From: Clostridia bacterium
Lineage (GTDB): Bacteria; Bacillota; Clostridia; Christensenellales; Borkfalkiaceae
Assembly: GCA_017505945.1 (NCBI GenBank)
Contig: JAFVOG010000075.1
Location: forward strand, 461 to 64,460
DNA length: 64,000 bases
Direction of reading: 5' to 3'
This document shows, piece by piece, positions 3,403 to 53,489 of the stretch. A program made the translations under genes and the position numbers. How positions within the stretch are numbered: position 1 is the stretch's first letter; each line of letters begins with the position of its first letter. Below the pieces are notes generated by a model. The model was not told the origin of the DNA. It made no database searches and was given only the letters and a program-made list of their open reading frames with translations.

Positions 3403-3867
3403 TTACAAATATAAATTGACAATCTCTTTCTTTTTCTTTACCGCGTATGCATAGGCAATTTTTGTACCGCTACGCCGTTGTAATTGTGACACGTGGTTCT
3501 CATTATAATAAAAAATGCAATAGGTTGCGTTGTCTATCATTTCATAATTACGTTCGACGTACGCATATTTCCCAGCGTTTTGCAAACGGGGTGGATAGTA
3601 CGTTTCTTCATACAACCCAAGCAAATATTCTTCATAAGCTTTATCTATCTTTGGATAGTCCGCCCTAACGTATATCCTTCTAATAAAAGGATATTCTTTT
3701 TTTATTTGCGTAACCACCTGCCAAGACAAATGGTCAAATGCACTTTTGCTACCAAAAAGAAAGGACGTTGCCCCCTTATTGATAAAATGAATAATGCTTT
3801 CTTTTAATCTTACTCTAAGCTCTTCCGTTTTCTCAATCGTTCTATGCCCTATAAAGCAAACTTGCAT
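3403..3867 (-). CDS. DUF1273/YpsA-YoqJ-like SLOG-superfamily protein, paralogue 1
   Basis: 154 aa. N-terminal CFIGHR motif, GSKSAFDHLS (G..FD) motif, ERNYEMIDNATYCIFYY and RSGTKIAYAY motifs shared with the ORFs at 44625 and 49827. RBS AGGGG upstream of the ATG. Confidence 0.8.
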   Translation of the reverse strand: MQVCFIGHRTIEKTEELRVRLKESIIHFINKGATSFLFGSKSAFDHLSWQVVTQIKKEYPFIRRIYVRADYPKIDKAYEEYLLGLYEETYYPPRLQNAGKYAYVERNYEMIDNATYCIFYYNENHVSQLQRRSGTKIAYAYAVKKKKEIVNLYL

Positions 3868-36683: not shown

Positions 36684-37130
36684 TTATAAACGTTCTTTCC
36701 AAATTTCTTCAAACCGTTCTTCCATTTTCAAAAATTCTTCCGCTAAGGCGCGGATTTCTTCGTGCGCGTCGGGGGACAGTTCGCCAAGCGATTTTTTCAG
36801 CGCCGTTATCCCCATAACCGTGCCTTGCACCATCATTTCCGCCACGTGCGACGGAGAATTGTCGGTGAGCGTACTCATCTTAATCGAACCCCACATCATC
36901 ATTTTCTTAAACGGGTTGGGGTCTTTGAGTTCAATCCCTTTATCCTTGGCAATCACGGCGGTTTTTGCCGAAATTTGTTCGTATTCTTCGTGCTGACGAA
37001 GGAGTTCTTCTCTCGTCGGCATATCGTCTATCTGCGGTAACAAGTTAGATATCGATTGCAACGCAAGTTGCGTATTGCGATATACTTCGGCAAGCACTTC
37101 TTCGCTTTGTTTGTTCGCTTGATTTTCCAT
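36684..37130 (-). CDS. Hypothetical helical protein, 148 aa
   Basis: ATG at 37130 (MENQANKQSEE...), preceded by AAGGAGA. The 330-aa track ORF upstream of this ATG overlaps the rplU gene and leader, so it was trimmed. Confidence 0.6.
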   Translation of the reverse strand: MENQANKQSEEVLAEVYRNTQLALQSISNLLPQIDDMPTREELLRQHEEYEQISAKTAVIAKDKGIELKDPNPFKKMMMWGSIKMSTLTDNSPSHVAEMMVQGTVMGITALKKSLGELSPDAHEEIRALAEEFLKMEERFEEIWKERL

Positions 37131-37220
37131 AATGCGTTCTCCTTTTCTCTTATCTTGCGGAATTTGTCCAAAAAACATACGTATTTTTTTATAAAAAATA
37201 GAAATGTGACGAAAAAACGC

Positions 37221-37250
37221 TTGACGGAGCGCAAAGGATTGTGTTATATT
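37221..37250 (+). promoter_or_regulatory. Candidate promoter of rplU-rpmA
   Basis: TTGACG (37221-37226) - 18 nt - TATATT (37245-37250), with TGt upstream of the -10. Leader of about 110 nt. Confidence 0.45.
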
Positions 37251-37364
37251 TATAGTCGAGCCGATAGAAACGGGCTTTATTAAGTTGCATTTTTTGACGG
37301 AATTTTCCCCAAAAAGCACGCCTTGGTTATTCTTCGAGACTGGAAAGAGGAGGTAAAAATTTTT

Positions 37365-37670
37365 ATGTACGCTATTATCGATAACGGCAATAAGCAATAC
37401 AAGGTAGCGGAAGGCGACGTTGTACGCGTAGAAAAGCTCGCGGCAAACGAAGGCGACGTAGTATCTTTCAACGTGCTTATGGTTGCAGATGAAAACGGTG
37501 TAAAAGCAGGCGCGGAAGTTGCGTCCGCAAAAGTAACCGCTACGGTCGTTAAGCAAGACAAGGCGAAGAAGATTATCGTCTTCAAGTATAAGGCTAAGAA
37601 AAACGAACGTAAAAAGCAAGGGCACAGACAACCCTTCACCGCAGTTAAAATCGAAAAAATCGAACTTTAA
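37365..37670 (+). CDS. rplU: 50S ribosomal protein L21
   Basis: [25 protein letters not shown] is the canonical L21 start. AGAGGAGG RBS. 101 aa. Confidence 0.95.
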
Positions 37671-37728
37671 TTGCAAGGCTATACAAACTTGGTTTGTATG
37701 AAAAATTTGAATTTAAGGAGAAAGAAAA

Positions 37729-43407: not shown

Positions 43408-44094
43408 TTATAACGGATTTTTTCGTTCTTTGCCCTGTCCGCGCGGATATTTAGGCGGAGTATTTTTAACTTTATTGACGACGATTAGCGTACGTGCGCC
43501 GTATTCCTTAGGTAAATCGTATTGCTGAATTTCCTGCAACTTTCCACCCAAAATTTTATACGCGTTTTCTGCTTCGTACGCCTCAGCGGTATCTCCGCTT
43601 TTATAGGCGATAAACTTGCCTCCAACCTTGACAAACGGCAAGCAATATTCGCAAAGGGTATTCATTCTTGCCACTGCCCTTGCCGTAACGCAGTCGTACT
43701 TTTCTCTAAACTTCACGTCTTTGGCACAATCTTCCGCCCTTGCATTATAAATATGCACGTTGGAAAGTTGTAACTTATCCACAACTACGCGTAAAAATTC
43801 ACACTTTTTTCCCACACTTTCAAACAAATCCAACTGTAAATCGGGACGGATAATTTTCAAGGGAATAGACGGAAATCCCGCCCCCGAACCGATTTCGGCA
43901 ACCCTTGCGTTGCACGTAAAAAAACTTTCTCCTACTACGCTGTCTAAAAAGTGCTTATAATACACGTCCTGTTCTTGTATAATGGTTGTCAAATTGTACT
44001 TTTCATTATATTCTAACAGGATTTTTCTAAATTCTTCAAATGTTTCGCGTTTGTCTTCCAACACGATTTTTTCATATTCTTGAACGTCTTGCAT
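43408..44094 (-). CDS. rsmG: 16S rRNA (guanine527-N7)-methyltransferase RsmG (GidB)
   Basis: 228 aa. SAM motif EIGSGAGFPSIPLKI. Typical origin-proximal location. Confidence 0.9.
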   Translation of the reverse strand: MQDVQEYEKIVLEDKRETFEEFRKILLEYNEKYNLTTIIQEQDVYYKHFLDSVVGESFFTCNARVAEIGSGAGFPSIPLKIIRPDLQLDLFESVGKKCEFLRVVVDKLQLSNVHIYNARAEDCAKDVKFREKYDCVTARAVARMNTLCEYCLPFVKVGGKFIAYKSGDTAEAYEAENAYKILGGKLQEIQQYDLPKEYGARTLIVVNKVKNTPPKYPRGQGKERKNPL

Positions 44095-44203
44095 CGCTAT
44101 CTCCCATCCCTTGTATTATACCATATCTTTACATAAATAGCAACGCTTTTTTCAAAATACTCTTTTCTTTCTTTTCCACCTCCCGTTTATAACGTTATCA
44201 ACC

Positions 44204-44482
44204 TGTGGATAACTTTGGTGGATATCTCTTTACAAACTTAATATTTATTCAATATTTTTATATTTATAACTTTTGTTTTAGTCTCAACTTTTTGCTTGTC
44301 CACTTATCCACTTTCTATACACTTTTTTATCCACCGAAAAAAAGCGGTTATACACCGCCTTATCCACATAGAAAAACGCTGATAAAATCTAACTTTTTTA
44401 GCAATTTTTAGTACTTGTCCACAAATCCACCGCACCTATTACTACTATTACCACTATTTATATTTTATATAAATAATAAAGG
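44204..44482. other. oriC-like element: DnaA-box cluster, GC clamp, DnaA-trio array and AT-rich DUE
   Basis: Perfect boxes: TGTGGATAA 44204-44212 and TTATCCACA 44360-44368. One-mismatch boxes: 44304-44312, 44327-44335, 44415-44423. Degenerate box: 44423-44431. These are followed by GCAC, then CTA TTA CTA CTA TTA CCA CTA at 44436-44456 (3'-GAT/AAT-5' on the other strand), then an AT-rich tract at 44457-44482. Confidence 0.75.
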
Positions 44483-44572
44483 AAGGAAAGAGCGACGTCG
44501 AAGAAAATGCAGGCTGAATAAAGTCTATAAAATACAAGCCGGAAAAAGTATAGGCTTTTTTTTGCAAGGGTA

Positions 44573-44601
44573 TTGAAATTGTAGCCAAAAAGTGCTATAC
44601 T
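44573..44601 (+). promoter_or_regulatory. Sigma-A-type promoter of DUF1273 paralogue 2
   Basis: TTGAAA (44573-44578) - 17 nt - TATACT (44596-44601). Confidence 0.6.
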
Positions 44602-44624
44602 TTATACGTGGAGATTTGCGTTTT

Positions 44625-45119
44625 ATGAAAAGTGTACTATTACAAACGAATATATTTACTCCTAAGGCTTGTGTTTTTACTGGACACCGCGGATTAGAAA
44701 AAGATTTTTCTAAACGCGCGCTAAAAAAGGCGATTGAAACGGTAATCAAAGCTGGCGTTACGACCTTTTATAACGGGCTTGCCTGCGGTTTTGATTTGGA
44801 AGCTTGCGAAGCGGTGTTAAAGTTAAAAAAGAAAAATCCGCAACTCCGTTTAATCGGGTGCGTGCCCTGTTTGGAACAGTCCGCTTATTATGCGTTGGAC
44901 GACCAAAAACGGTATGAAAAAATTTGCAAAAGCTTGGACGAAAAAGTACAAGTTTCTTCCACTTACTATTATAACGGTTGCATGCAAAAGCGCAACAGAT
45001 ATATGTGTGACAGAGCGGATTTGATGATAGCGTATTGCAATAGGGATAAGGGCGGAACGGCTTCTACCGTGAAGTATTTTCAAAAAACCTATCCTGAAAA
45101 ACAGGTAATATTTATATAA
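44625..45119 (+). CDS. DUF1273/YpsA-like SLOG-superfamily protein, paralogue 2
   Basis: ATG at 44625 (MKSVLLQ...). CVFTGHR, NGLACGFDLEA, KRNRYMCDRADLMIAYC and KGGTASTVKY motifs are shared with paralogues 1 and 3. Confidence 0.8.
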   Translation: MKSVLLQTNIFTPKACVFTGHRGLEKDFSKRALKKAIETVIKAGVTTFYNGLACGFDLEACEAVLKLKKKNPQLRLIGCVPCLEQSAYYALDDQKRYEKICKSLDEKVQVSSTYYYNGCMQKRNRYMCDRADLMIAYCNRDKGGTASTVKYFQKTYPEKQVIFI

Positions 45120-45163
45120 ATATAAAATTTATATAAAAAATGCGAAAATATAAAAATTTTTAC

Positions 45164-45192
45164 TTGCAAACGCAGGCAAAATATGGTACAAT
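45164..45192 (+). promoter_or_regulatory. Sigma-A-type promoter of dnaN (extended -10)
   Basis: TTGCAA (45164-45169) - 17 nt - TACAAT (45187-45192), preceded by TGg. Confidence 0.6.
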
Positions 45193-45233: not shown

Positions 45234-46343
45234 ATGAAATTCGTATGTGAAGGTTCGGTTTTAGCGGACGCGTCTTTTACGGTAAGTAAAGCTTGTGCAA
45301 CGCGCACGATGACGCCTATTTTAGAATGTATCAAGATTAAGGCGCAAAACGAAGGTTTGACGCTGACGGCGTACGACGGGGAAATTTCCATTGAAAAGAA
45401 AATGAAAGCGGACGTTATGGAAGAAGGCGAAGTTTGTGTAAACGGTAAATTCTTTTCCGATTTCGTCGGTAAAATCACGTTGGACGAAGTCACCGTTTCG
45501 TCGGGCGAACAAGGAATGATGATTAAATATGGCGATAACGAATCGTTTATGCAAACGCTTTCGGCAAAGGATTTTCCCGTATTTGACGGCGCGAATATTC
45601 CCGAAGAAAAATATTTTGAATTGAAACAAACGGCGTTTAAGGAACTTGTTTCCAAAGTAACGTTTTGCTGTGCAACGGATGACAGCCGTCCTATTTTGAA
45701 AGGGAGCTTGTTGGAAGCAAAAGACGGCGTTTTGTACGCTTCTGCTCTCGACGGATTTAGAATGGCTTGCGGTTACACGCACACGACGGACGGAGGAAAT
45801 ATGAAAATCGTCGTTCCTGCAAGAACGCTTACGGAAATTTCCCGTATGTTGGAAGGGGACGAGCTTATTAAGATTTTCGCGGATAAAAACAGATTGTCCG
45901 TAGCGGTAAACGATACCGTGATTACGTCTCGTTTGTATTTAGGAGAATTCGTTAAAAAGGAAAATATTTTCCCCAGCGAATTTACGACGAGAATAACGCT
46001 GAAAAAGAGCGAACTTATCGACAGTGTAGAACGTGCAGCCGTAATGATTAGAGGGGATAAAAATAACCTGCTTCTCTTTGATATTAAAGCGGATAAGATG
46101 GTGGTAAACGCCAACTCGGATATCGGTAAAATTGAAGAAACGGTTACGGCGAACTTACAAGGCAAGGAATTGAAAATTGCTATGAACGGGAAATATTTGT
46201 TGGACGCGTTGAAAGCGTTGGACGAAGAAGAAATCATCTTGTCGTTCAATTCGGCTACGTCCCCTTTCACGGTGGAAAATATGATGGACAAGCGTTTTCA
46301 ATACTTAATTTTGCCCGTAAGAACAAGCAATTCAGCGCAATAA
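45234..46343 (+). CDS. dnaN: DNA polymerase III beta sliding clamp
   Basis: 369 aa. MKFVCEGSVLADASFTVSKACATRTMTPILECIKIKA aligns with the conserved DnaN N-terminus. Ends ...YLILPVRT. Confidence 0.95.
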   Translation: MKFVCEGSVLADASFTVSKACATRTMTPILECIKIKAQNEGLTLTAYDGEISIEKKMKADVMEEGEVCVNGKFFSDFVGKITLDEVTVSSGEQGMMIKYGDNESFMQTLSAKDFPVFDGANIPEEKYFELKQTAFKELVSKVTFCCATDDSRPILKGSLLEAKDGVLYASALDGFRMACGYTHTTDGGNMKIVVPARTLTEISRMLEGDELIKIFADKNRLSVAVNDTVITSRLYLGEFVKKENIFPSEFTTRITLKKSELIDSVERAAVMIRGDKNNLLLFDIKADKMVVNANSDIGKIEETVTANLQGKELKIAMNGKYLLDALKALDEEEIILSFNSATSPFTVENMMDKRFQYLILPVRTSNSAQ

Positions 46344-46472: not shown

Positions 46473-46607
46473 ATGAAAAGAACGTATCAACCCAAAAAGA
46501 GACAAAGAAGCAAAGTGCACGGCTTCCGTAAGAGAATGGCAACGACGGCAGGTAGAAAGGTTTTGAAACGCCGTAGAAATAAGGGCAGAAAACGTCTTAC
46601 CCACTAA
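46473..46607 (+). CDS. rpmH: 50S ribosomal protein L34
   Basis: Not in the ORF track (44 aa). I translated it by hand as [52 protein letters not shown]. Confidence 0.95.
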
Positions 46608-46715
46608 TGGTAAAAAAACAAAGTAGAAACGAAGCGCGCAATCCTTTCCTTTTTTATAAAGGAGAGGTTTTGCCATTTTAATATACCGCTTCGTTAAAGG
46701 TAAAAAGCAAAAAAG

Positions 46716-47033
46716 ATGCGCTATTATAAACTGAAAAAACAAGCGGATTTCGATAAGCTTTTCAAAAAGGGAAAACGTCTGTTTTCCTCGTCCGTTACCG
46801 TAATTTACGCTCCGTCTAAGCAAACGACGATGGGAATTTCCGTAGGAAAACGTCACGGCAAAAGCGTACAAAGAAACCGCATTAAAAGGTTAATAAGAGA
46901 GGCGTTTCGGCGCGAAGTGGAAACCATTAAAGGCACGTATGCGTTTGTGATTATTCCAAAAGTAGCCGAAGAATATCATTTTGCTACGTTTCAAGACGAT
47001 TTACGATGTATATTGAAAAAAGCACAACTTTAA
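46716..47033 (+). CDS. rnpA: Ribonuclease P protein component
   Basis: 105 aa, basic. [17 protein letters not shown]...[12 protein letters not shown] (RNR motif). Downstream of rpmH. Confidence 0.9.
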
Positions 47034-47098
47034 GTTTGCAGTGGAAACCGTTTTTTACGGAAAATGCAAGATACGTATATAAAATTTTGAGAAAAAAG

Positions 47099-47341
47099 GT
47101 GTTTCGCCCCTATCTCAAATCGTTTTGTATGCGTTTGATTATTTTCTATCAAAAACACATTTCCAAACACACTTGCCTGTACCGCCCCACCTGTTCGCAA
47201 TACACGCTGGAATGTATCAATAATCACGGTGCAATAGTAGGTATTTTGATGGGGGCGTGGCGCATTTTACGGTGCAATCCCCTTTCCAAAGGCGGTTACG
47301 ACCCTGCACCCGAAAAACGGCAAAAAAAGTGGCTTTTATAA
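47099..47341 (+). CDS. yidD: Membrane protein insertion efficiency factor YidD
   Basis: [10 protein letters not shown]...[15 protein letters not shown]...G...R.LRCNP is the YidD signature. I chose the GTG at 47099 (80 aa). The alternatives are ATG at 47129 or 47006. Confidence 0.8.
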
Positions 47342-47386
47342 ACTCGATGATAATAGTACGGCAAAAGCCGTAAAAATAGGATAGAT

Positions 47387-48832
47387 ATGGAATTATTCAA
47401 TTTGTTAAACGGCTCGGTAGGGATTCATTTATTTGGACAAACCTTCGACGTGTCGCTCAACTGGATAGGCGAACTTATTAAAGGACTCATCAAGGGCGTT
47501 GGCTCGGTGGGTTTGGGTATTATCGTCTTTTCGCTTATCTTAAAAGTTATCGTTTTACCTTTCGACATTTACCAACGTATTGCAATGCGTAAACAAAACT
47601 TAAAGATGGCGGAAAATAAAGACCGTATGGAAAAATTGCAAAAGCAATACGCCAACGACAAGCAGATGTATAACCAAAAAGTTATGGAAATGTACAAGGA
47701 AAGCGGAATCAATATGTTCTCTTCCTGTCTGCCTATGATTTTGTCGATGATTATCTTTTTCGTAGCCATCGGCGCGTTTAACTCGTATTCGCAATATTCC
47801 AACATTGAAAACTATAATATTATGGTAGATGCGTACAACGCGAAAATGACGGAATATGCAGTAGATGTGTCGGACGAAAACACAAATTTCACGTTGCAAA
47901 CGCGTACGGAAAAAAATGCGCAAGGCGTCGATGAAGAAGTGTATTATATCCAAGTTTCGCAAACGGCAAAAGTCATCTATTTCGAAGTGAAATACACGGG
48001 CGAAATTGCGGATATGGCGACTTACAAGGCGTACGTGGACGACTATAAGGGCGAAAAGGCGTACTATATCGACAAAGCTAAATTAGACGACACCGTAAAG
48101 GCGTACGTAGAAGAAAAACGCACGGCGCATAACAATGCTAACGCGGAATCGGGCGCAACGACGCCTTTTGATGAAGACTTGGCAATTAAGACGTACTTTA
48201 TCGAACAAGGTCAAGACGCGGTAGTTTCGGCGTATAAAAAGGACGTTACCAAAAACACGTCGTTTTTATGGATTAAAAACATTTGGGTTACGGACGCCGT
48301 ATATAAACACCCCGTTCTCCCCTACGGCGAATTCTCGTCGAGTATGGCAAGAGAATCGTTTAAGGTAGATGGAAAAAAGGTAAAACTCAGCGACGTAGCG
48401 GAATATACCAACGCCTACCAAGAATATGCGTACGACCAAATTACGGGCAAACTCGACAGCCAAAAATCCGCACCTAACGGGTATTTCATTTTAATCGCGC
48501 TGTCTATCGGCAGTATCTTGTTGCAACAGTTCGTTAGCATGCGTTCGCAAAAGGAACAGCAAAAATATTCGTCCGTAGATGGACAAAGCGGTTCGCAACA
48601 AAAAATGATGCTGATTATGATGACGGGTATGTTCGCTATCTTCTCGTTTTTGTATAGCTCCGCATTTACTATTTATATGGTAACGAGTAACTTAACGTCG
48701 CTTGCTTCTACGCTGATTATCAATAAAGCGGTAGATAGCTCGGCAAGAAAGAAGGAAGAACGCGCTTTGCAAGAAAAATATAACAAGCGTTTCCCTCGTC
48801 AGCAACAAGACGATAAGAAAAAGAAGAAGTAA
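47387..48832 (+). CDS. yidC: YidC/Oxa1-family membrane insertase with a large inserted soluble region
   Basis: 481 aa. Conserved core (ILKVIVLPF...QKQYANDKQMYNQKVMEMYKESGINMFSSCLPMILSMIIFF, FLWIKNI, and C-terminal TMs with a Lys-rich tail). About 170 extra residues lie between the core TM helices. Confidence 0.9.
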   Translation: MELFNLLNGSVGIHLFGQTFDVSLNWIGELIKGLIKGVGSVGLGIIVFSLILKVIVLPFDIYQRIAMRKQNLKMAENKDRMEKLQKQYANDKQMYNQKVMEMYKESGINMFSSCLPMILSMIIFFVAIGAFNSYSQYSNIENYNIMVDAYNAKMTEYAVDVSDENTNFTLQTRTEKNAQGVDEEVYYIQVSQTAKVIYFEVKYTGEIADMATYKAYVDDYKGEKAYYIDKAKLDDTVKAYVEEKRTAHNNANAESGATTPFDEDLAIKTYFIEQGQDAVVSAYKKDVTKNTSFLWIKNIWVTDAVYKHPVLPYGEFSSSMARESFKVDGKKVKLSDVAEYTNAYQEYAYDQITGKLDSQKSAPNGYFILIALSIGSILLQQFVSMRSQKEQQKYSSVDGQSGSQQKMMLIMMTGMFAIFSFLYSSAFTIYMVTSNLTSLASTLIINKAVDSSARKKEERALQEKYNKRFPRQQQDDKKKKK

Positions 48833-48870
48833 AAAACGTTTCCGCAAATAAGCGGAAAGGAGAGTAGAAT

Positions 48871-49788
48871 ATGAGTTATAAGGAATTTACGGGTAAAACC
48901 GTAGAAGAAGCGATTGAGCTTGGTCTTGCCGAGCTGAATCTCACGAAAGAAAACGCAGATATCCGCGTTTTGGAAGAAGGCAAGAGAAAACTGTTTGGTT
49001 CGGTAAAAGCGCGCGTAGAAATCGCACCGAAAAATGCGGAAGAACAACCCGAAGACGCTCCCGTTGTAGAAAAATCGGGAAAGACGGACGGCGAACGCAC
49101 GGTAGAATTTTTAGAAGGGCTGTTTAAGCTGTTAAATATCACGGCGGACACGGAGCTTGTTTCCGAAGGGGAAAAGGTAGAAATCAACGTAACGGCGGTG
49201 CGTTCCACCACCGTTATCGGTAAGCACGGCGCAATGCTCGACGCTATCCAAACGTTGGCTGGCGCGGTGGCAAACACGGGTAGAGACGAATATAAACGCG
49301 TCGTTGTCGATTGCGAAAATTACCGTGAAAATAGAGAAAACACGCTGAATAAGCTTGCGGAAAACTTGGCAAGCAAAGCCATTCGCTTGCAAAGAAAAAT
49401 CCAGTTAGAACCGATGAACCCGTACGAAAGACGTATCATCCACTCCGCACTGGCAAACGCGGAAGGCGTAAAGACGGTAAGCGAAGGCAAAGAACCCAAC
49501 CGCTATATCGTCATTATCCCTGAAAACGAAGAAGACCCTACCCTGCCCCCCTTGCCTGCAAGAAACGACAGACGTGACGATAGACAAGACAGACGTGGAA
49601 ACGGGCGTGGGGATAGAAGAAACGGCGGACGCGGATACGGCAACAAAGGCGATAGACGCGGTGGTTATAAAAAGCAAAACCGTAGCGGTTCGGGCGCACC
49701 CGCGTCGGGCGGAACGTCTATGAAGGCAAGCACCGATTTCTTTGGGATTTTCCTTGGCAATAGCGGTAACAACGGCGACGAAGAATAA
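48871..49788 (+). CDS. khpB: Jag/KhpB RNA-binding protein (Jag-N, KH, R3H) with Arg/Gly-rich tail
   Basis: 305 aa. The N-terminal Jag domain, IGKHGAMLDAIQ (KH) and YERRIIHSAL (R3H) are present. The tail is RNDRRDDRQDRRGNGRGDRRNGGRGYGNKGDRRGG. Confidence 0.9.
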   Translation: MSYKEFTGKTVEEAIELGLAELNLTKENADIRVLEEGKRKLFGSVKARVEIAPKNAEEQPEDAPVVEKSGKTDGERTVEFLEGLFKLLNITADTELVSEGEKVEINVTAVRSTTVIGKHGAMLDAIQTLAGAVANTGRDEYKRVVVDCENYRENRENTLNKLAENLASKAIRLQRKIQLEPMNPYERRIIHSALANAEGVKTVSEGKEPNRYIVIIPENEEDPTLPPLPARNDRRDDRQDRRGNGRGDRRNGGRGYGNKGDRRGGYKKQNRSGSGAPASGGTSMKASTDFFGIFLGNSGNNGDEE

Positions 49789-49792
49789 GAAA

Positions 49793-49830
49793 ACAAAAAA
49801 ACGCTTTCCTACACGGAAAGCGTTTTTTAT
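49793..49830. terminator. Bidirectional terminator after jag
   Basis: acgctttcc (49801-49809) / ggaaagcgt (49815-49823), flanked by an A-run and T6. Confidence 0.8.
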
Positions 49831-50312
49831 TTGCAAAATAGGGAATCCCAAATATTGACGATTCGTTTATCCTTACGGCGAGTAGTTGCATAGCGATACG
49901 CCTTATACGCACCACTGTTTTCACGGTTTTCAGCGTAAAACAGGATATAATGGCTTTCGTCTATCATAGCGCAGTTTCTAAAATAAATGCTTTTATACCA
50001 ACCGTTAAACGACGGCACAAGATAGGTAATTTCGTCGTAATTTTCACGGTTAAAATAACGTACTTTTTTGGTTAGATACCGTTCTTGCGCAACGCAATAT
50101 ACGCGCCAAAGCGCAAGCTCTGGTCGGCTCGTTTTTAGTTGCGTTACGATTTGATAACAAAGCTCGTCAAAATCTCCGTACCCCCCGAAATAAAAAATAC
50201 GGCAACCGTTACGTATGGCGTTTTCAATTTCCGCAAGGGTGGCGTTATATAATTCCTGTGTAACCGTAATGTCACGGTGTCCGAAAAACGAGCATATTTT
50301 TCTTTCGTCCAT
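49827..50312 (-). CDS. DUF1273/YpsA-like SLOG-superfamily protein, paralogue 3
   Basis: ATG at 50312 (MDERKICSFFGHRD...). GGYGDFDELC, FRNCAMIDESHYILFYA and NSGAYKAYRY motifs. The track ORF extends to a GTG at 50378 inside the structured leader. Confidence 0.75.
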   Translation of the reverse strand: MDERKICSFFGHRDITVTQELYNATLAEIENAIRNGCRIFYFGGYGDFDELCYQIVTQLKTSRPELALWRVYCVAQERYLTKKVRYFNRENYDEITYLVPSFNGWYKSIYFRNCAMIDESHYILFYAENRENSGAYKAYRYATTRRKDKRIVNIWDSLFCK

Positions 50313-50506
50313 AATAAAAAAATAAGGTGCCACCCCTTGCGAGATGACACCGCAGAATACCTCTCGCGTAGTTGCCACACCACTTTAACCTACTTTTCAG
50401 CCGATTATTGCGATACCGTATTTCTGCCGAAATAGAGTATGGCTGAAAAAAGGGAATACTATCCCTTCAAAGTAGGTTTTTAGAAAATTATTAAAATGAT
50501 GTGGCT
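50313..50506 (-). promoter_or_regulatory. Riboswitch-like structured 5' leader (three-way junction plus antiterminator/terminator), class unknown
   Basis: On the - strand, P1 is AACCUACUUU (50478-50469) / AAAGUAGGUU (50396-50387), enclosing hairpin AAGGGA-UAGUAU-UCCCUU and stem CAGCC...GGCUG, which has an inner UAUUUC-GGCA-GAAAUA hairpin. The terminator GGUGUCAUCUC-GCAA-GGGGUGGCACC (50351-50326) is followed by UUAUUUUUUU. A competing stem GCGAGA/UCUCGC is also possible. Confidence 0.55.
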
Positions 50507-50749: not shown

Positions 50750-51268
50750 TTACCGTAAAAACGAAACGTTTTTTTGTAGTTTTTTCACGGACAGGTATAA
50801 CGGTGTGCCAAGCCCGTACACCCACACCGTTTGCGTGATAAATAAGGACAGGGCGTAGGCAAAATATGCCGTCAGCGCGGTGGCGTAACCGCCCGCGTCA
50901 CCACACAAAACGACGATAACGAACGGAATTATGACGGTATTAAACAGGACGGGGAAAATTCCCCCCACCGCAATTTTCAGCGCGGTGTTTTGTATGCGTT
51001 TCCCCACCAAATAGGTGCAAACGGCGGAAAGCAGGGTGGCAAGCGAACCGAACGGCAGGTCGTACAAAATAAACGGTGACGCCAAGTTGGAAAGGGCGCA
51101 CCCCACCGTTAAGCCCACAATCGATTCGGGGAAAAACAGCGGTAAAAGACAAAACGCCTCTGCGGGGCGGACCTGTAACGGGCCGAACGCAAAGGGTGTA
51201 AAGATAAGGGTAATTGCAACGTACAACGCCGAAATTACGGCGGAACGGCAAAGCTTTTTGGCTTGCAT
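50750..51268 (-). CDS. queT: QueT-family queuosine-precursor transporter (ECF S-component-like)
   Basis: 172 aa, about 5 TM helices. RSAVISALYVAITLIFTPFAFGPLQVR.AEA matches the QueT N-terminal signature. Confidence 0.75.
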   Translation of the reverse strand: MQAKKLCRSAVISALYVAITLIFTPFAFGPLQVRPAEAFCLLPLFFPESIVGLTVGCALSNLASPFILYDLPFGSLATLLSAVCTYLVGKRIQNTALKIAVGGIFPVLFNTVIIPFVIVVLCGDAGGYATALTAYFAYALSLFITQTVWVYGLGTPLYLSVKKLQKNVSFLR

Positions 51269-51273
51269 ATTGT

Positions 51274-51318
51274 CACCTCGGTTTTTTTACGGAAGTGTTT
51301 ACCGAAAACCTTCCTATG
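51274..51318 (-). promoter_or_regulatory. preQ1-I-like riboswitch upstream of queT
   Basis: - strand RNA: GGAAG-GUUUUCGGUAAACA-CUUCC-GUAAAAAAACCGAGGUG. It has a short P1, an A-rich tail, tail ACCGA complementary to loop UCGGU (H-type pseudoknot), and an SD GAGG at the 3' end. This mirrors the B. subtilis queC aptamer layout. Confidence 0.55.
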
Positions 51319-51323
51319 CCCGT

Positions 51324-51353
51324 ATTATAACACTCTTTTTTCGTGTTCGTCAA
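51324..51353 (-). promoter_or_regulatory. Sigma-A-type promoter of the queT leader
   Basis: On the - strand: TTGACG (51353-51348) - 18 nt - TATAAT (51329-51324), preceded by TGt. Confidence 0.6.
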
Positions 51354-51364
51354 GCATTTTATAT

Positions 51365-51964
51365 TTATTTGGCGGATTTTGTTTGCGACGCCCTATTCCA
51401 AAGCAGAGTAGCGATTGCGGACGAGATTTGTTCCGCCATACTATACACCAAGTGCAGGCGCGTGGTGTTGAGAAGTCCGAAATTTGCCACCGATTTTTCC
51501 GCTACGATACCCATAACGGATACGTCGCCGATTGCACCCAGCTTTTTATTCGCCCCTGCGCCCGGGAGCAGGGGCGAGTCGTTGAGCTTAATAAGACCTA
51601 TATCCCCTTCCGCACCCACGGCGGCGTCGATTGCGATAATTTGGCTTTTGGGGTGCGTTTCCTTCAAAAACGCGCGCAAATACCGTATTTCTTTGGCGGT
51701 TACGGGCAGGGCAAGCGTACCGTAAATAAACGCCTTTACCCCCTGCGTCTTGTATTTGAGCATAGAACCCGTAATCGGACCTAAACTGTCCCCGATGGCA
51801 AGGTCGCTCCCCACGCATACAATCACGGGCGCGCGCTCGCTATCCACTTGCGCTCCGCCTTTTTTCTTGGATTTTTGGATAAGGTCTTCTCGTAACAGCT
51901 CGTCCAAAGCCATCGTGATACCGTCCGTTGCTAATTTATTATAAATATGAAAGGAATACTGCAT
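51365..51964 (-). CDS. yyaC: Putative sporulation protein YyaC (GPR-like protease fold, DUF1256)
   Basis: VIVCVGSDLAIGDSLGPITGSML and IIAIDAAVG motifs as in YyaC. Start uncertain (ATG 51964 chosen; the track gives TTG at 52006). Confidence 0.7.
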   Translation of the reverse strand: MQYSFHIYNKLATDGITMALDELLREDLIQKSKKKGGAQVDSERAPVIVCVGSDLAIGDSLGPITGSMLKYKTQGVKAFIYGTLALPVTAKEIRYLRAFLKETHPKSQIIAIDAAVGAEGDIGLIKLNDSPLLPGAGANKKLGAIGDVSVMGIVAEKSVANFGLLNTTRLHLVYSMAEQISSAIATLLWNRASQTKSAK

Positions 51965-52829: not shown

Positions 52830-52855
52830 ACCAAATAAAAAACGCAAGGCAACGC

Positions 52856-52890
52856 CGAATTCTCGGCGTTGCCTTTTTCTTATATTTTTG
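52856..52890 (+). terminator. Intrinsic terminator of cvpA
   Basis: aaggcaacgccga (52856-52868) / tcggcgttgcctt (52873-52885) followed by T-run. Confidence 0.85.
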
Positions 52891-53037
52891 CCATTTTTCG
52901 ATGGCTTTTTTCGGCATAGTTCCGCTTTGTTTTTTTCTCGAAAACGCACGCCTTTTCCTATAAAAAAAAGGCGTGTATTTTTATCAACGTACCCTAAAAT
53001 ATTATGCGTTTATAACGCTGTGCATAACGCAAAACCC

Positions 53038-53487
53038 TGTGGATAACTTAGGGTTATCCACTAAAGAACGTATGTTTGCATTGTAAAAAACTCGCAAAAA
53101 TGCTGTAAAAAACGCAAAATGGAGCAAAAATTATCGTCCAAAATTGTGGATAACCTATGCGTTATCCACCAAAAAAGACCACCTTTTCACATAAGATTTC
53201 GGGAAAAAAGCCCGTTTATCCACCGATTTTTTCATTTTTAGGTGGAATAGGTCGCAAAATCGTTAGATTTTCGATTATTGAACAAAAATGCGTGCAATAG
53301 TTATCCACAATATTTTACGGATTGATGTGGAAAAGTCCACTTATCCACATTACGGGAAGAAAAGTGAAAAACGCAACCATTGTATATTTTTATAATTTTA
53401 TTTTTTCGGCAAAAACGGGCAAAAAAATACGGAATAAGACAAATGTGTTTTTCCTTCGACAAAAGCGGTTATCCACCGTATTCCACA
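53038..53487. other. Second DnaA-box cluster in a non-coding convergent intergenic region
   Basis: Perfect boxes at 53038-53046, 53145-53153 (both TGTGGATAA), 53301-53309 and 53341-53349 (both TTATCCACA). One-mismatch boxes at 53054-53062, 53162-53170, 53216-53224 and 53469-53477. AT-rich tract around 53383-53407. Confidence 0.75.
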
Positions 53488-53489
53488 AG

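Follow-up and report, generated by a model that had tools for sequence, protein, structure and literature searches.

At the Bacillus subtilis origin, with incC and its basal unwinding system (BUS) as our comparison system (Richardson et al. 2016, 2019; Pelliciari et al. 2021, 2023), a co-oriented pair of DnaA boxes recruits DnaA and directs the oligomerisation of ATP-DnaA onto trinucleotides termed DnaA-trios, and the strands separate (PMC10721633, PMC6669920). BUS elements have been predicted in 85% of 2070 bacterial origins. Across the Firmicutes, the gene order rnpA-rpmH-dnaA-dnaN is described as conserved, and dnaA divides the two halves of bipartite origins, as in the oriC1-dnaA-oriC2 arrangement of Clostridioides difficile (PMC7561715). 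In cyanobacteria, including Synechococcus elongatus PCC 7942 and Anabaena, an oriC linked to dnaN with dnaA located elsewhere is nearly universal, and the explanation offered is that dnaA translocated away from a spacer that it ancestrally shared with dnaN (PMC4009838). The BUS of S. elongatus has been tested in vitro (PMC8287927). That oriC may lie away from dnaA is already acknowledged by origin predictors. In Escherichia coli, oriC lies between mnmG (gidA) and mioC, with dnaA about 40 kb away, and its DNA unwinding element (DUE) consists of 13-mers, accompanied by IHF and Fis sites and by GATC/SeqA control. Here, we describe a 64,000-nt stretch of a Clostridia genome of the family Borkfalkiaceae (assembly GCA_017505945.1, contig JAFVOG010000075.1), referred to below as the window, which carries a BUS-like module between rsmG and dnaN and no dnaA gene nearby. 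Judging from its sequence, we consider it very probable that the region 44172-44482 is a functional chromosomal oriC that uses the Bacillus-type BUS mechanism.

The origin spacer is the 497-bp intergenic region between the divergent genes rsmG and ypsA (44095-44591), and it contains about ten DnaA boxes plus a degenerate proximal box (Table 1). The boxes form a left group (44172-44225), a middle group of co-oriented boxes on the plus strand (44296-44368) and a tandem pair, TTGTCCACA followed by AATCCACC, whose TCCAC cores are offset by 8 nt. The pair is followed by a short GC-rich spacer, seven phased trinucleotides and an AT-rich tract. A preliminary description of this DNA had listed two perfect boxes, three with one mismatch and one degenerate box, and all six were recovered at the coordinates it gave; five boxes with two mismatches (44172, 44195, 44217, 44296 and 44348) were absent from it. 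The tandem pair, the GCAC spacer and the trinucleotides were likewise found as it had placed them. It had also read the complementary strand, 3'-GAT AAT GAT GAT AAT GGT GAT-5', as the DnaA-trio consensus, in agreement with our finding that six of the seven triplets, five of them consecutive, fit 3'-[G/A]AT-5'. The AT-rich tract was confirmed and its edges were not: placed at 44457-44482, it is a run of A and T only that spans 44455-44480, 2 nt off.

In the published search for BUS elements, a DnaA box may have up to two mismatches and must lie within 0-16 bp of the first trio. A second box in tandem is optional and may deviate at up to four positions, with the one upstream nearer the consensus, and the trios, three or more in a row, have A in the centre (3'-NAN-5') and ideally read 3'-GAT-5'; the commonest box-to-trio spacer in that survey was 13 bp (Pelliciari et al. 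2021; PMC8287927). In the origin spacer, TTGTCCACA differs from TTATCCACA at one position and ends 12 bp before the first trio, and the co-oriented AATCCACC, which as a 9-mer is AAATCCACC, has three mismatches, the upstream box being the closer to the consensus. Five consecutive trios (six of seven in total) follow, with a 26-nt A/T-only run on their far side. The complete unwinding module of boxes, GC-rich spacer, trios and DUE proposed in the preliminary description is therefore present in every sequence feature of a BUS, and 17 orthologous loci agree.

The resemblance to the incC/BUS of B. subtilis comprises the co-oriented tandem boxes with the upstream box nearer the consensus, the short G+C-rich spacer, the array of 3'-GAT/AAT-5' trios, the AT-rich DUE, the additional boxes upstream and the orientation of the whole module towards dnaN. 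The box-to-trio spacer of 12 bp is likewise close to the commonest one of 13 bp. The two systems differ in that the 8-nt offset of the proximal TCCAC cores makes the two 9-mers overlap by one base. They also differ in gene context. dnaN is located downstream of the trios and the DUE, as in the canonical Firmicute arrangement, but a YpsA/SLOG gene lies in between; the place of dnaA directly upstream of the unwinding region is taken by rsmG; and rpmH-rnpA-yidD-yidC-jag, which in B. subtilis is upstream and divergent, is found 3' of dnaN on the same strand, both here and in relatives. C. difficile, which belongs to the same class, shares with our locus a module of trios and DUE upstream of dnaN and a second cluster consisting only of boxes. 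Unlike in C. difficile, the order rnpA-rpmH-dnaA-dnaN is broken here, and the box-only cluster, instead of lying just across dnaA, is found between cvpA and gerAC at a distance of about 8.6 kb.

As in cyanobacteria, the box cluster is adjacent to dnaN and not to dnaA, and it comes with BUS elements. This is an analogy and not a homology: the phylum is different, the event was independent, and the box motif is TTTTCCACA in cyanobacteria and TT(A/G)TCCACA here. The E. coli origin is similar in being uncoupled from dnaA, in having an rsmG/gid-family neighbour and in the existence of a separate DnaA-box cluster (datA). Its R1 box and R 13-mer also have the same orientation as the elements described here, with TTATCCACA and, some 13 bp downstream of it, 5'-CTA on one strand. 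E. coli differs in its 13-mer DUE, its IHF and Fis sites and its GATC/SeqA control, none of which was seen in the present locus, where no search aimed at them was made.

Boxes with at most one mismatch are far more frequent in the window than expected: 40 were counted, compared with 10.5 +/- 3.1 in dinucleotide-preserving shuffles (n=100), none of which reached 40. Fifteen of these 40 boxes sit in two clusters, at 44204-44423 and 53019-53477. The 64 kb contain, on both strands together, a single phased run with [C/T]TA in at least five of six triplets (44439-44456), the mean in block shuffles being 0.04, and among all boxes with at most two mismatches in both clusters, only the one at 44415 precedes a trio array (six of seven triplets, 12 nt on). 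The DUE tract is the second-longest A/T-only run of the window, and only two 40-mers of the window have a less stable nearest-neighbour energy than the one around it. The window belongs to an ENA metagenome scaffold of 122,624 bp; via look-ups from genes near the window ends, we extended the sequence read by 10 kb on each side, to record positions 1-82386 (about 54 kb to the left and 28 kb to the right of the module). This stretch of the record contains no further box cluster and no further trio run beyond those at 44 and 53 kb. A chance array is rejected by the shuffle statistics for both box counts and trio runs.

A DnaN-protein scan of species-representative genomes provided 22 related loci, with DnaN proteins 57-72% identical, all from metagenome-assembled genomes (MAGs) of uncultured gut or rumen Clostridia, many of them named Candidatus Scatosoma. 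In a wider search for DnaN homologues, 1572 relatives were obtained at E<=1e-30, and the best 120 of these 1572 all belong to the clade, with at least 67% identity. The majority gene order is rsmG (-), the origin spacer, then ypsA, dnaN, rpmH, rnpA, yidD, yidC and jag (all +) and, further on, cvpA (+), a second spacer and gerAC (-). Seventeen loci include the spacer on the rsmG side in their sequence, and the module is present in all 17: TT(G/A)TCCACn is followed by wwTCCACn, by 3-7 G+C-rich bp, by triplets of the type CTA CTA (C/A)TA ATA CTA CTA and by an AT tract with a shared TTTATATAAATA-like core. The alignment of these loci shows no variation in either TCCAC core, in the T-TCCAC of the upstream box or in the TA of the phased triplets, and the flanking sequence is variable; box positions counted from the rsmG start recur over the whole spacer. 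In every case, rsmG and dnaN enclose the module, whose triplets and AT tract face dnaN; this holds even for locus L009, which has no ypsA, for L019, where ypsA has moved, and for L011, where it is inverted and accompanied by an additional inserted gene. In L009 and L019, dnaN directly adjoins the module. The earlier proposal that the unwinding element has been kept with dnaN fits these observations. Given this persistence of position and of invariant motifs across loci, neither a relic nor a chance array would be expected, and an assembly artefact is rejected by the recurrence in 22 independent contigs from different studies.

No Bac_DnaA or Bac_DnaA_C domain is present in the precomputed Pfam annotations of every called gene in record 1-82386, and Pfam scans of 57 of the 61 open reading frames (ORFs) in the window, the four unscanned ones being 79–332 aa long, revealed no DnaA domain. 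As a query for tblastn, we used a B. subtilis DnaA sequence validated with Pfam (Bac_DnaA, 270 bits; Bac_DnaA_C, 108; DnaA_N, 64). At E<=10, it gave just two meaningless matches (E>5) in the window and 29 loci (537,599 bases). Neither a dnaA gene nor a recognisable remnant was found within about 10 kb of dnaN in the 22 related genomes, and neither the origin spacer nor the cvpA-gerAC spacer contains a dnaA remnant or a small conserved ORF. In L011 and L012, an insert of 1.7 kb separates ypsA from dnaN; it was considered as a candidate dnaA and rejected, as its translation, inspected by eye, looks like an S-adenosylmethionine-dependent methyltransferase. The absence of dnaA beside the module, already remarked upon from the window, thus extends to 82 kb of the scaffold and to the loci of the relatives. 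Because high-affinity boxes and trios are conserved, it is very unlikely that the lineage lacks DnaA.

At the 2-kb scale, the first 26 kb or so have a negative GC skew; from 26 to 45 kb, values are close to zero or mixed, and those beyond are positive. The module is inside this zone of sign change, and the switch in gene orientation also falls within the window. Since plus-strand genes at 38-43 kb confound the plain GC skew, we fitted the per-gene skew at third codon positions (GC3 skew) by regression on a coding-strand term and a replication-strand term, for each candidate switch point in the 82 kb. The best points were 30-32 kb (residual sum of squares 587.7) and then 44.1-44.6 kb (593.8), in a fit that is nearly flat from 26 to 56 kb. 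The skew therefore puts the origin in the window, at about 26-56 kb, which is compatible with 44.4 kb and does not pinpoint it, so the argument for 44.4 kb comes from how the motifs are arranged and from the conservation of this layout. Several observations weigh against this position. The cumulative GC skew, at 2-kb resolution, bottoms out near 36 kb and has another local minimum at 44-45 kb, and the GC3 fit marginally favours 30-32 kb. dnaA itself lies outside the 82 kb read, where a second module beside it is possible, and a larger box cluster with its own AT tract is found 8.6 kb away from the module.

From the motifs and their conservation, we infer a course of initiation whose steps follow those modelled for B. 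subtilis. DnaA, whose gene would be located elsewhere in the genome, would bind the roughly ten double-stranded DnaA boxes, and the tandem pair (44415-44431) would anchor an ATP-DnaA oligomer. This oligomer would extend over GCAC onto the minus-strand trios, stretching and separating the strands, and the opening would spread into the A/T-only tract, the presumed helicase loading site. Replication would then proceed leftwards via rsmG and rightwards via ypsA-dnaN-rpmH-rnpA-yidD-yidC-jag. The module would correspond to the dnaA-dnaN spacer (incC/oriC2) of other Firmicutes.

The larger box cluster, missed by the preliminary description, is located 8.6 kb from the BUS module in a 660-bp spacer (52830-53489) on which the genes cvpA (+) and gerAC (-) converge with their 3' ends. 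It includes a 24-nt A/T run (53383-53406), the third-longest A/T-only run of the window. A second BUS in this cluster was considered and rejected, as trios follow none of its boxes. The cluster contains no conserved small ORF and, given its position between convergent genes, has no obvious promoter role. An equivalent cluster was identified in 15 related loci, with 9-14 boxes with at most one mismatch (4-8 of them perfect), at about 7-12.5 kb from the BUS; in L018, a rearrangement puts it about 8.3 kb away on the opposite side. Its AT-rich element recurs in 6-7 relatives, in either orientation. The cluster was not seen in the sequence covered for L002, L007, L015 and L019, and in L015, acetyltransferase-like and other genes occupy the place after cvpA. 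It is possible that this cluster is an auxiliary or regulatory partner of the origin.

The sequence by itself does not separate two readings of the distal cluster, and we prefer the one in which it titrates or inactivates DnaA, in the manner of the DnaA-box clusters (DBCs) of B. subtilis or of datA in E. coli, with the 44-kb module being self-sufficient; our confidence in it is about even. The many high-affinity boxes, followed by no trios and lacking an unwinding module, are typical of such loci, and the non-coding, non-promoter position and the conserved proximity to oriC are consistent with this function. B. subtilis reportedly has six clusters of this kind, one of them near oriC, which restrain initiation (work attributed to Okumura and colleagues in 2012). 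The conserved AT-rich element, however, is no known feature of a DBC, and the sequence does not set titration apart from the alternative of a bipartite origin.

That second reading, which we regard as unlikely though it would extend the proposed origin rather than exclude it, is of a long-range split origin in which the BUS half at 44.2-44.5 kb and an auxiliary half at 53.0-53.5 kb, with boxes and an AT element and equivalent to the incA/B or oriC1 of B. subtilis, C. difficile and Helicobacter pylori, are bridged by DnaA. The 8.6 kb in between (11 genes) would be looped out instead of dnaA alone, and selection would keep the two halves, about 7-12 kb apart across the clade, within about 10 kb of each other. 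The retention of the cluster in 15 loci at about 7-12.5 kb from the BUS, and at about 8.3 kb on the other side in L018, would fit such a design, as would its AT-rich element, its location away from any promoter and the lack of a conserved ORF or Rfam RNA in it. Known bipartite origins also consist of one box-only half and one unwinding half (PMC7561715). The four loci in which the cluster is missing argue against a split origin, as do its variable orientation relative to the flanking genes and the roughly ten boxes of the BUS cluster alone, which are as many as in a complete incC. Moreover, the halves of known bipartite origins are separated by dnaA alone, about 1.3-1.5 kb, and we know of no bipartite origin with about 9 kb between its halves.

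It is very improbable that the 44-kb module is inactive, as a relic or a DnaA-controlled promoter region of rsmG and ypsA-dnaN, with the true origin beside the relocated dnaA: dnaA and its flanks are indeed outside the 82 kb read, promoter-like sites of rsmG and ypsA flank the boxes and GC skew does not single out 44 kb, but a relic would lose invariant tandem boxes, phased trios and an AT tract at DnaN identities of 57-72%, trios and DUE have no known role in transcriptional control, and both the skew sign change and the gene-orientation switch are in this window.

Table 1. Features of the putative origin region, its flanking genes and the distal box cluster (window coordinates).
Feature	Position	Strand	Remarks
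rsmG (16S rRNA m7G methyltransferase G)	43408-44094	-	Pfam GidB 2.8e-47; left neighbour of module
rsmG promoter-like site	44143-44115	-	Promoter scan, TTGCTA-17-TATAAT; inside origin region
DnaA box TTTTCCACC	44172	+	2 mismatches; left group
DnaA box TTATCAACC	44195	+	2 mismatches; left group
DnaA box TGTGGATAA	44204-44212	-	Perfect; left group
DnaA box ATATCCACC	44217	-	2 mismatches; left group
AT-rich spacer between left and right box groups	44230-44269		Second least stable 40-mer of window
DnaA box TTGTCCACT	44296	+	2 mismatches; overlapping tandem with 44304 box
DnaA box TTATCCACT	44304	+	1 mismatch; overlapping tandem with 44296 box
DnaA box TTATCCACC	44327	+	1 mismatch
DnaA box TTATACACC	44348	+	2 mismatches
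DnaA box TTATCCACA	44360-44368	+	Perfect
BUS upstream box TTGTCCACA	44415-44423	+	1 mismatch; better conserved of tandem pair
BUS proximal degenerate box AATCCACC	44424-44431	+	Co-oriented with TTGTCCACA
GC-rich spacer GCAC	44432-44435	+	12 bp separate upstream-box end from first trio (44436)
DnaA-trios	44436-44456	-	Plus strand CTA TTA CTA CTA TTA CCA CTA
AT-rich DUE (predicted)	44455-44480		26 nt, A/T only; palindrome-like TTTATATAAATA motif, common to orthologues
ypsA(-dnaN) transcription unit promoter-like site	44573-44601	+	Promoter scan, TTGAAA-17-TG-n-TATACT
ypsA (YpsA/SLOG family, DUF1273)	44592-45119	+	Pfam YpsA 2.1e-15; between module and dnaN
dnaN promoter-like site	45164-45192	+	Promoter scan
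dnaN (beta clamp)	45234-46343	+	Pfam, 3 of 3 beta-clamp domains
rpmH	46474-46608	+	Downstream of dnaN
rnpA	46716-47033	+	Downstream of rpmH
Second DnaA-box cluster	53019-53477		10 boxes with at most 1 mismatch, 4 perfect; denser than 44-kb cluster

Two further features were noted in and near the origin spacer. An isolated perfect box TTATCCACA is located within the rsmG coding sequence (43775-43783, plus strand), about 320 bp from the spacer. An inverted repeat with an 8-bp stem, AAAGCGGTTATACACCGCCTT, spans 44341-44361, centred on box TTATACACC and just before the perfect box at 44360; a scan flagged it as terminator-like on the minus strand.

The neighbours of the module named in the preliminary description, rsmG on the left and a DUF1273/YpsA-like gene and then dnaN on the right, were recovered as the same genes by Pfam. 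The gene caller starts ypsA at 44625 (164 aa). The BUS module is thus placed between divergent promoter-like sites as well as between divergent genes, and the genes around it, dnaN, rpmH, rnpA, yidC, jag, rsmG, gyrB and gyrA, are origin-proximal ones. The block of rpmH, rnpA, yidD, yidC and jag/khpB (46474-49788) is on the plus strand like dnaN, and its order is clade-wide; at least two rearrangements are needed to derive its placement from the canonical Firmicute order. The gyrB-gyrA pair is about 17 kb to the right of dnaN (window position about 63684 to the end; 12630-17200 in L028) and is preceded by dus and not by recF/remB. The genes recF, mnmE and mnmG, usually near the origin in Firmicutes, were not seen across the 82 kb of scaffold read. 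No Rfam family reached its gathering score anywhere in the 64-kb window.

Three YpsA/SLOG paralogues are encoded within 47 kb, at 3403-3867 (-), 44592-45119 (+) and 49827-50378 (-), the second being the one wedged between the DUE and dnaN. The third, without a Pfam match, shows about 30% identity to the ypsA orthologues of the relatives and to the 3403-3867 paralogue (tblastn). In B. subtilis, YpsA has been linked to the inhibition of cell division. The longest A/T-only run of the window (36 nt, 45106-45141) is in the ypsA-dnaN spacer and carries two copies of the palindrome TTTATATAAA, which also marks the DUE. This suggests either that ypsA was inserted into a once-longer AT-rich region upstream of dnaN or that the run is a UP-like element of the dnaN promoter.

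Two longest-ORF calls, 36684-37676 (-) and 51015-51725 (+), are artefacts antisense to real genes. The gene caller instead predicts a 148-aa gene, rplU and rpmA at 36.7-38.0 kb, and queT and a DUF1256 gene on the minus strand at 50.7-51.9 kb; both artefact ORFs appear conserved in tblastn because the real genes sit on the opposite strand. The offset between the window and the deposited record (ENA scaffold_136) is 9906 for the gene at 82-2295 and 9907 for dnaN, which implies a 1-bp difference between window and scaffold somewhere in 2.3-45 kb.

The unwinding module described here is an ordinary BUS, and its mechanism is nothing new. Its gene context is standard in cyanobacteria and unusual for Firmicutes: Candidatus Scatosoma and its relatives have lost dnaA from the locus and carry the rpmH-jag block 3' of dnaN, which makes the clade an exception to the Firmicute-wide context rnpA-rpmH-dnaA-dnaN. 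When dnaA relocates, the BUS appears to remain beside dnaN, a pattern also seen in cyanobacteria. The locus provides a confident origin annotation for an abundant, uncultured gut lineage, which can be used for growth-rate estimates from metagenome coverage and for skew-based checks of MAG assemblies, and which is relevant to origin predictors that take dnaA as an indicator gene. Only the distal box cluster could open up something new, and its conservation makes it a natural test case for auxiliary box clusters that act at a distance.

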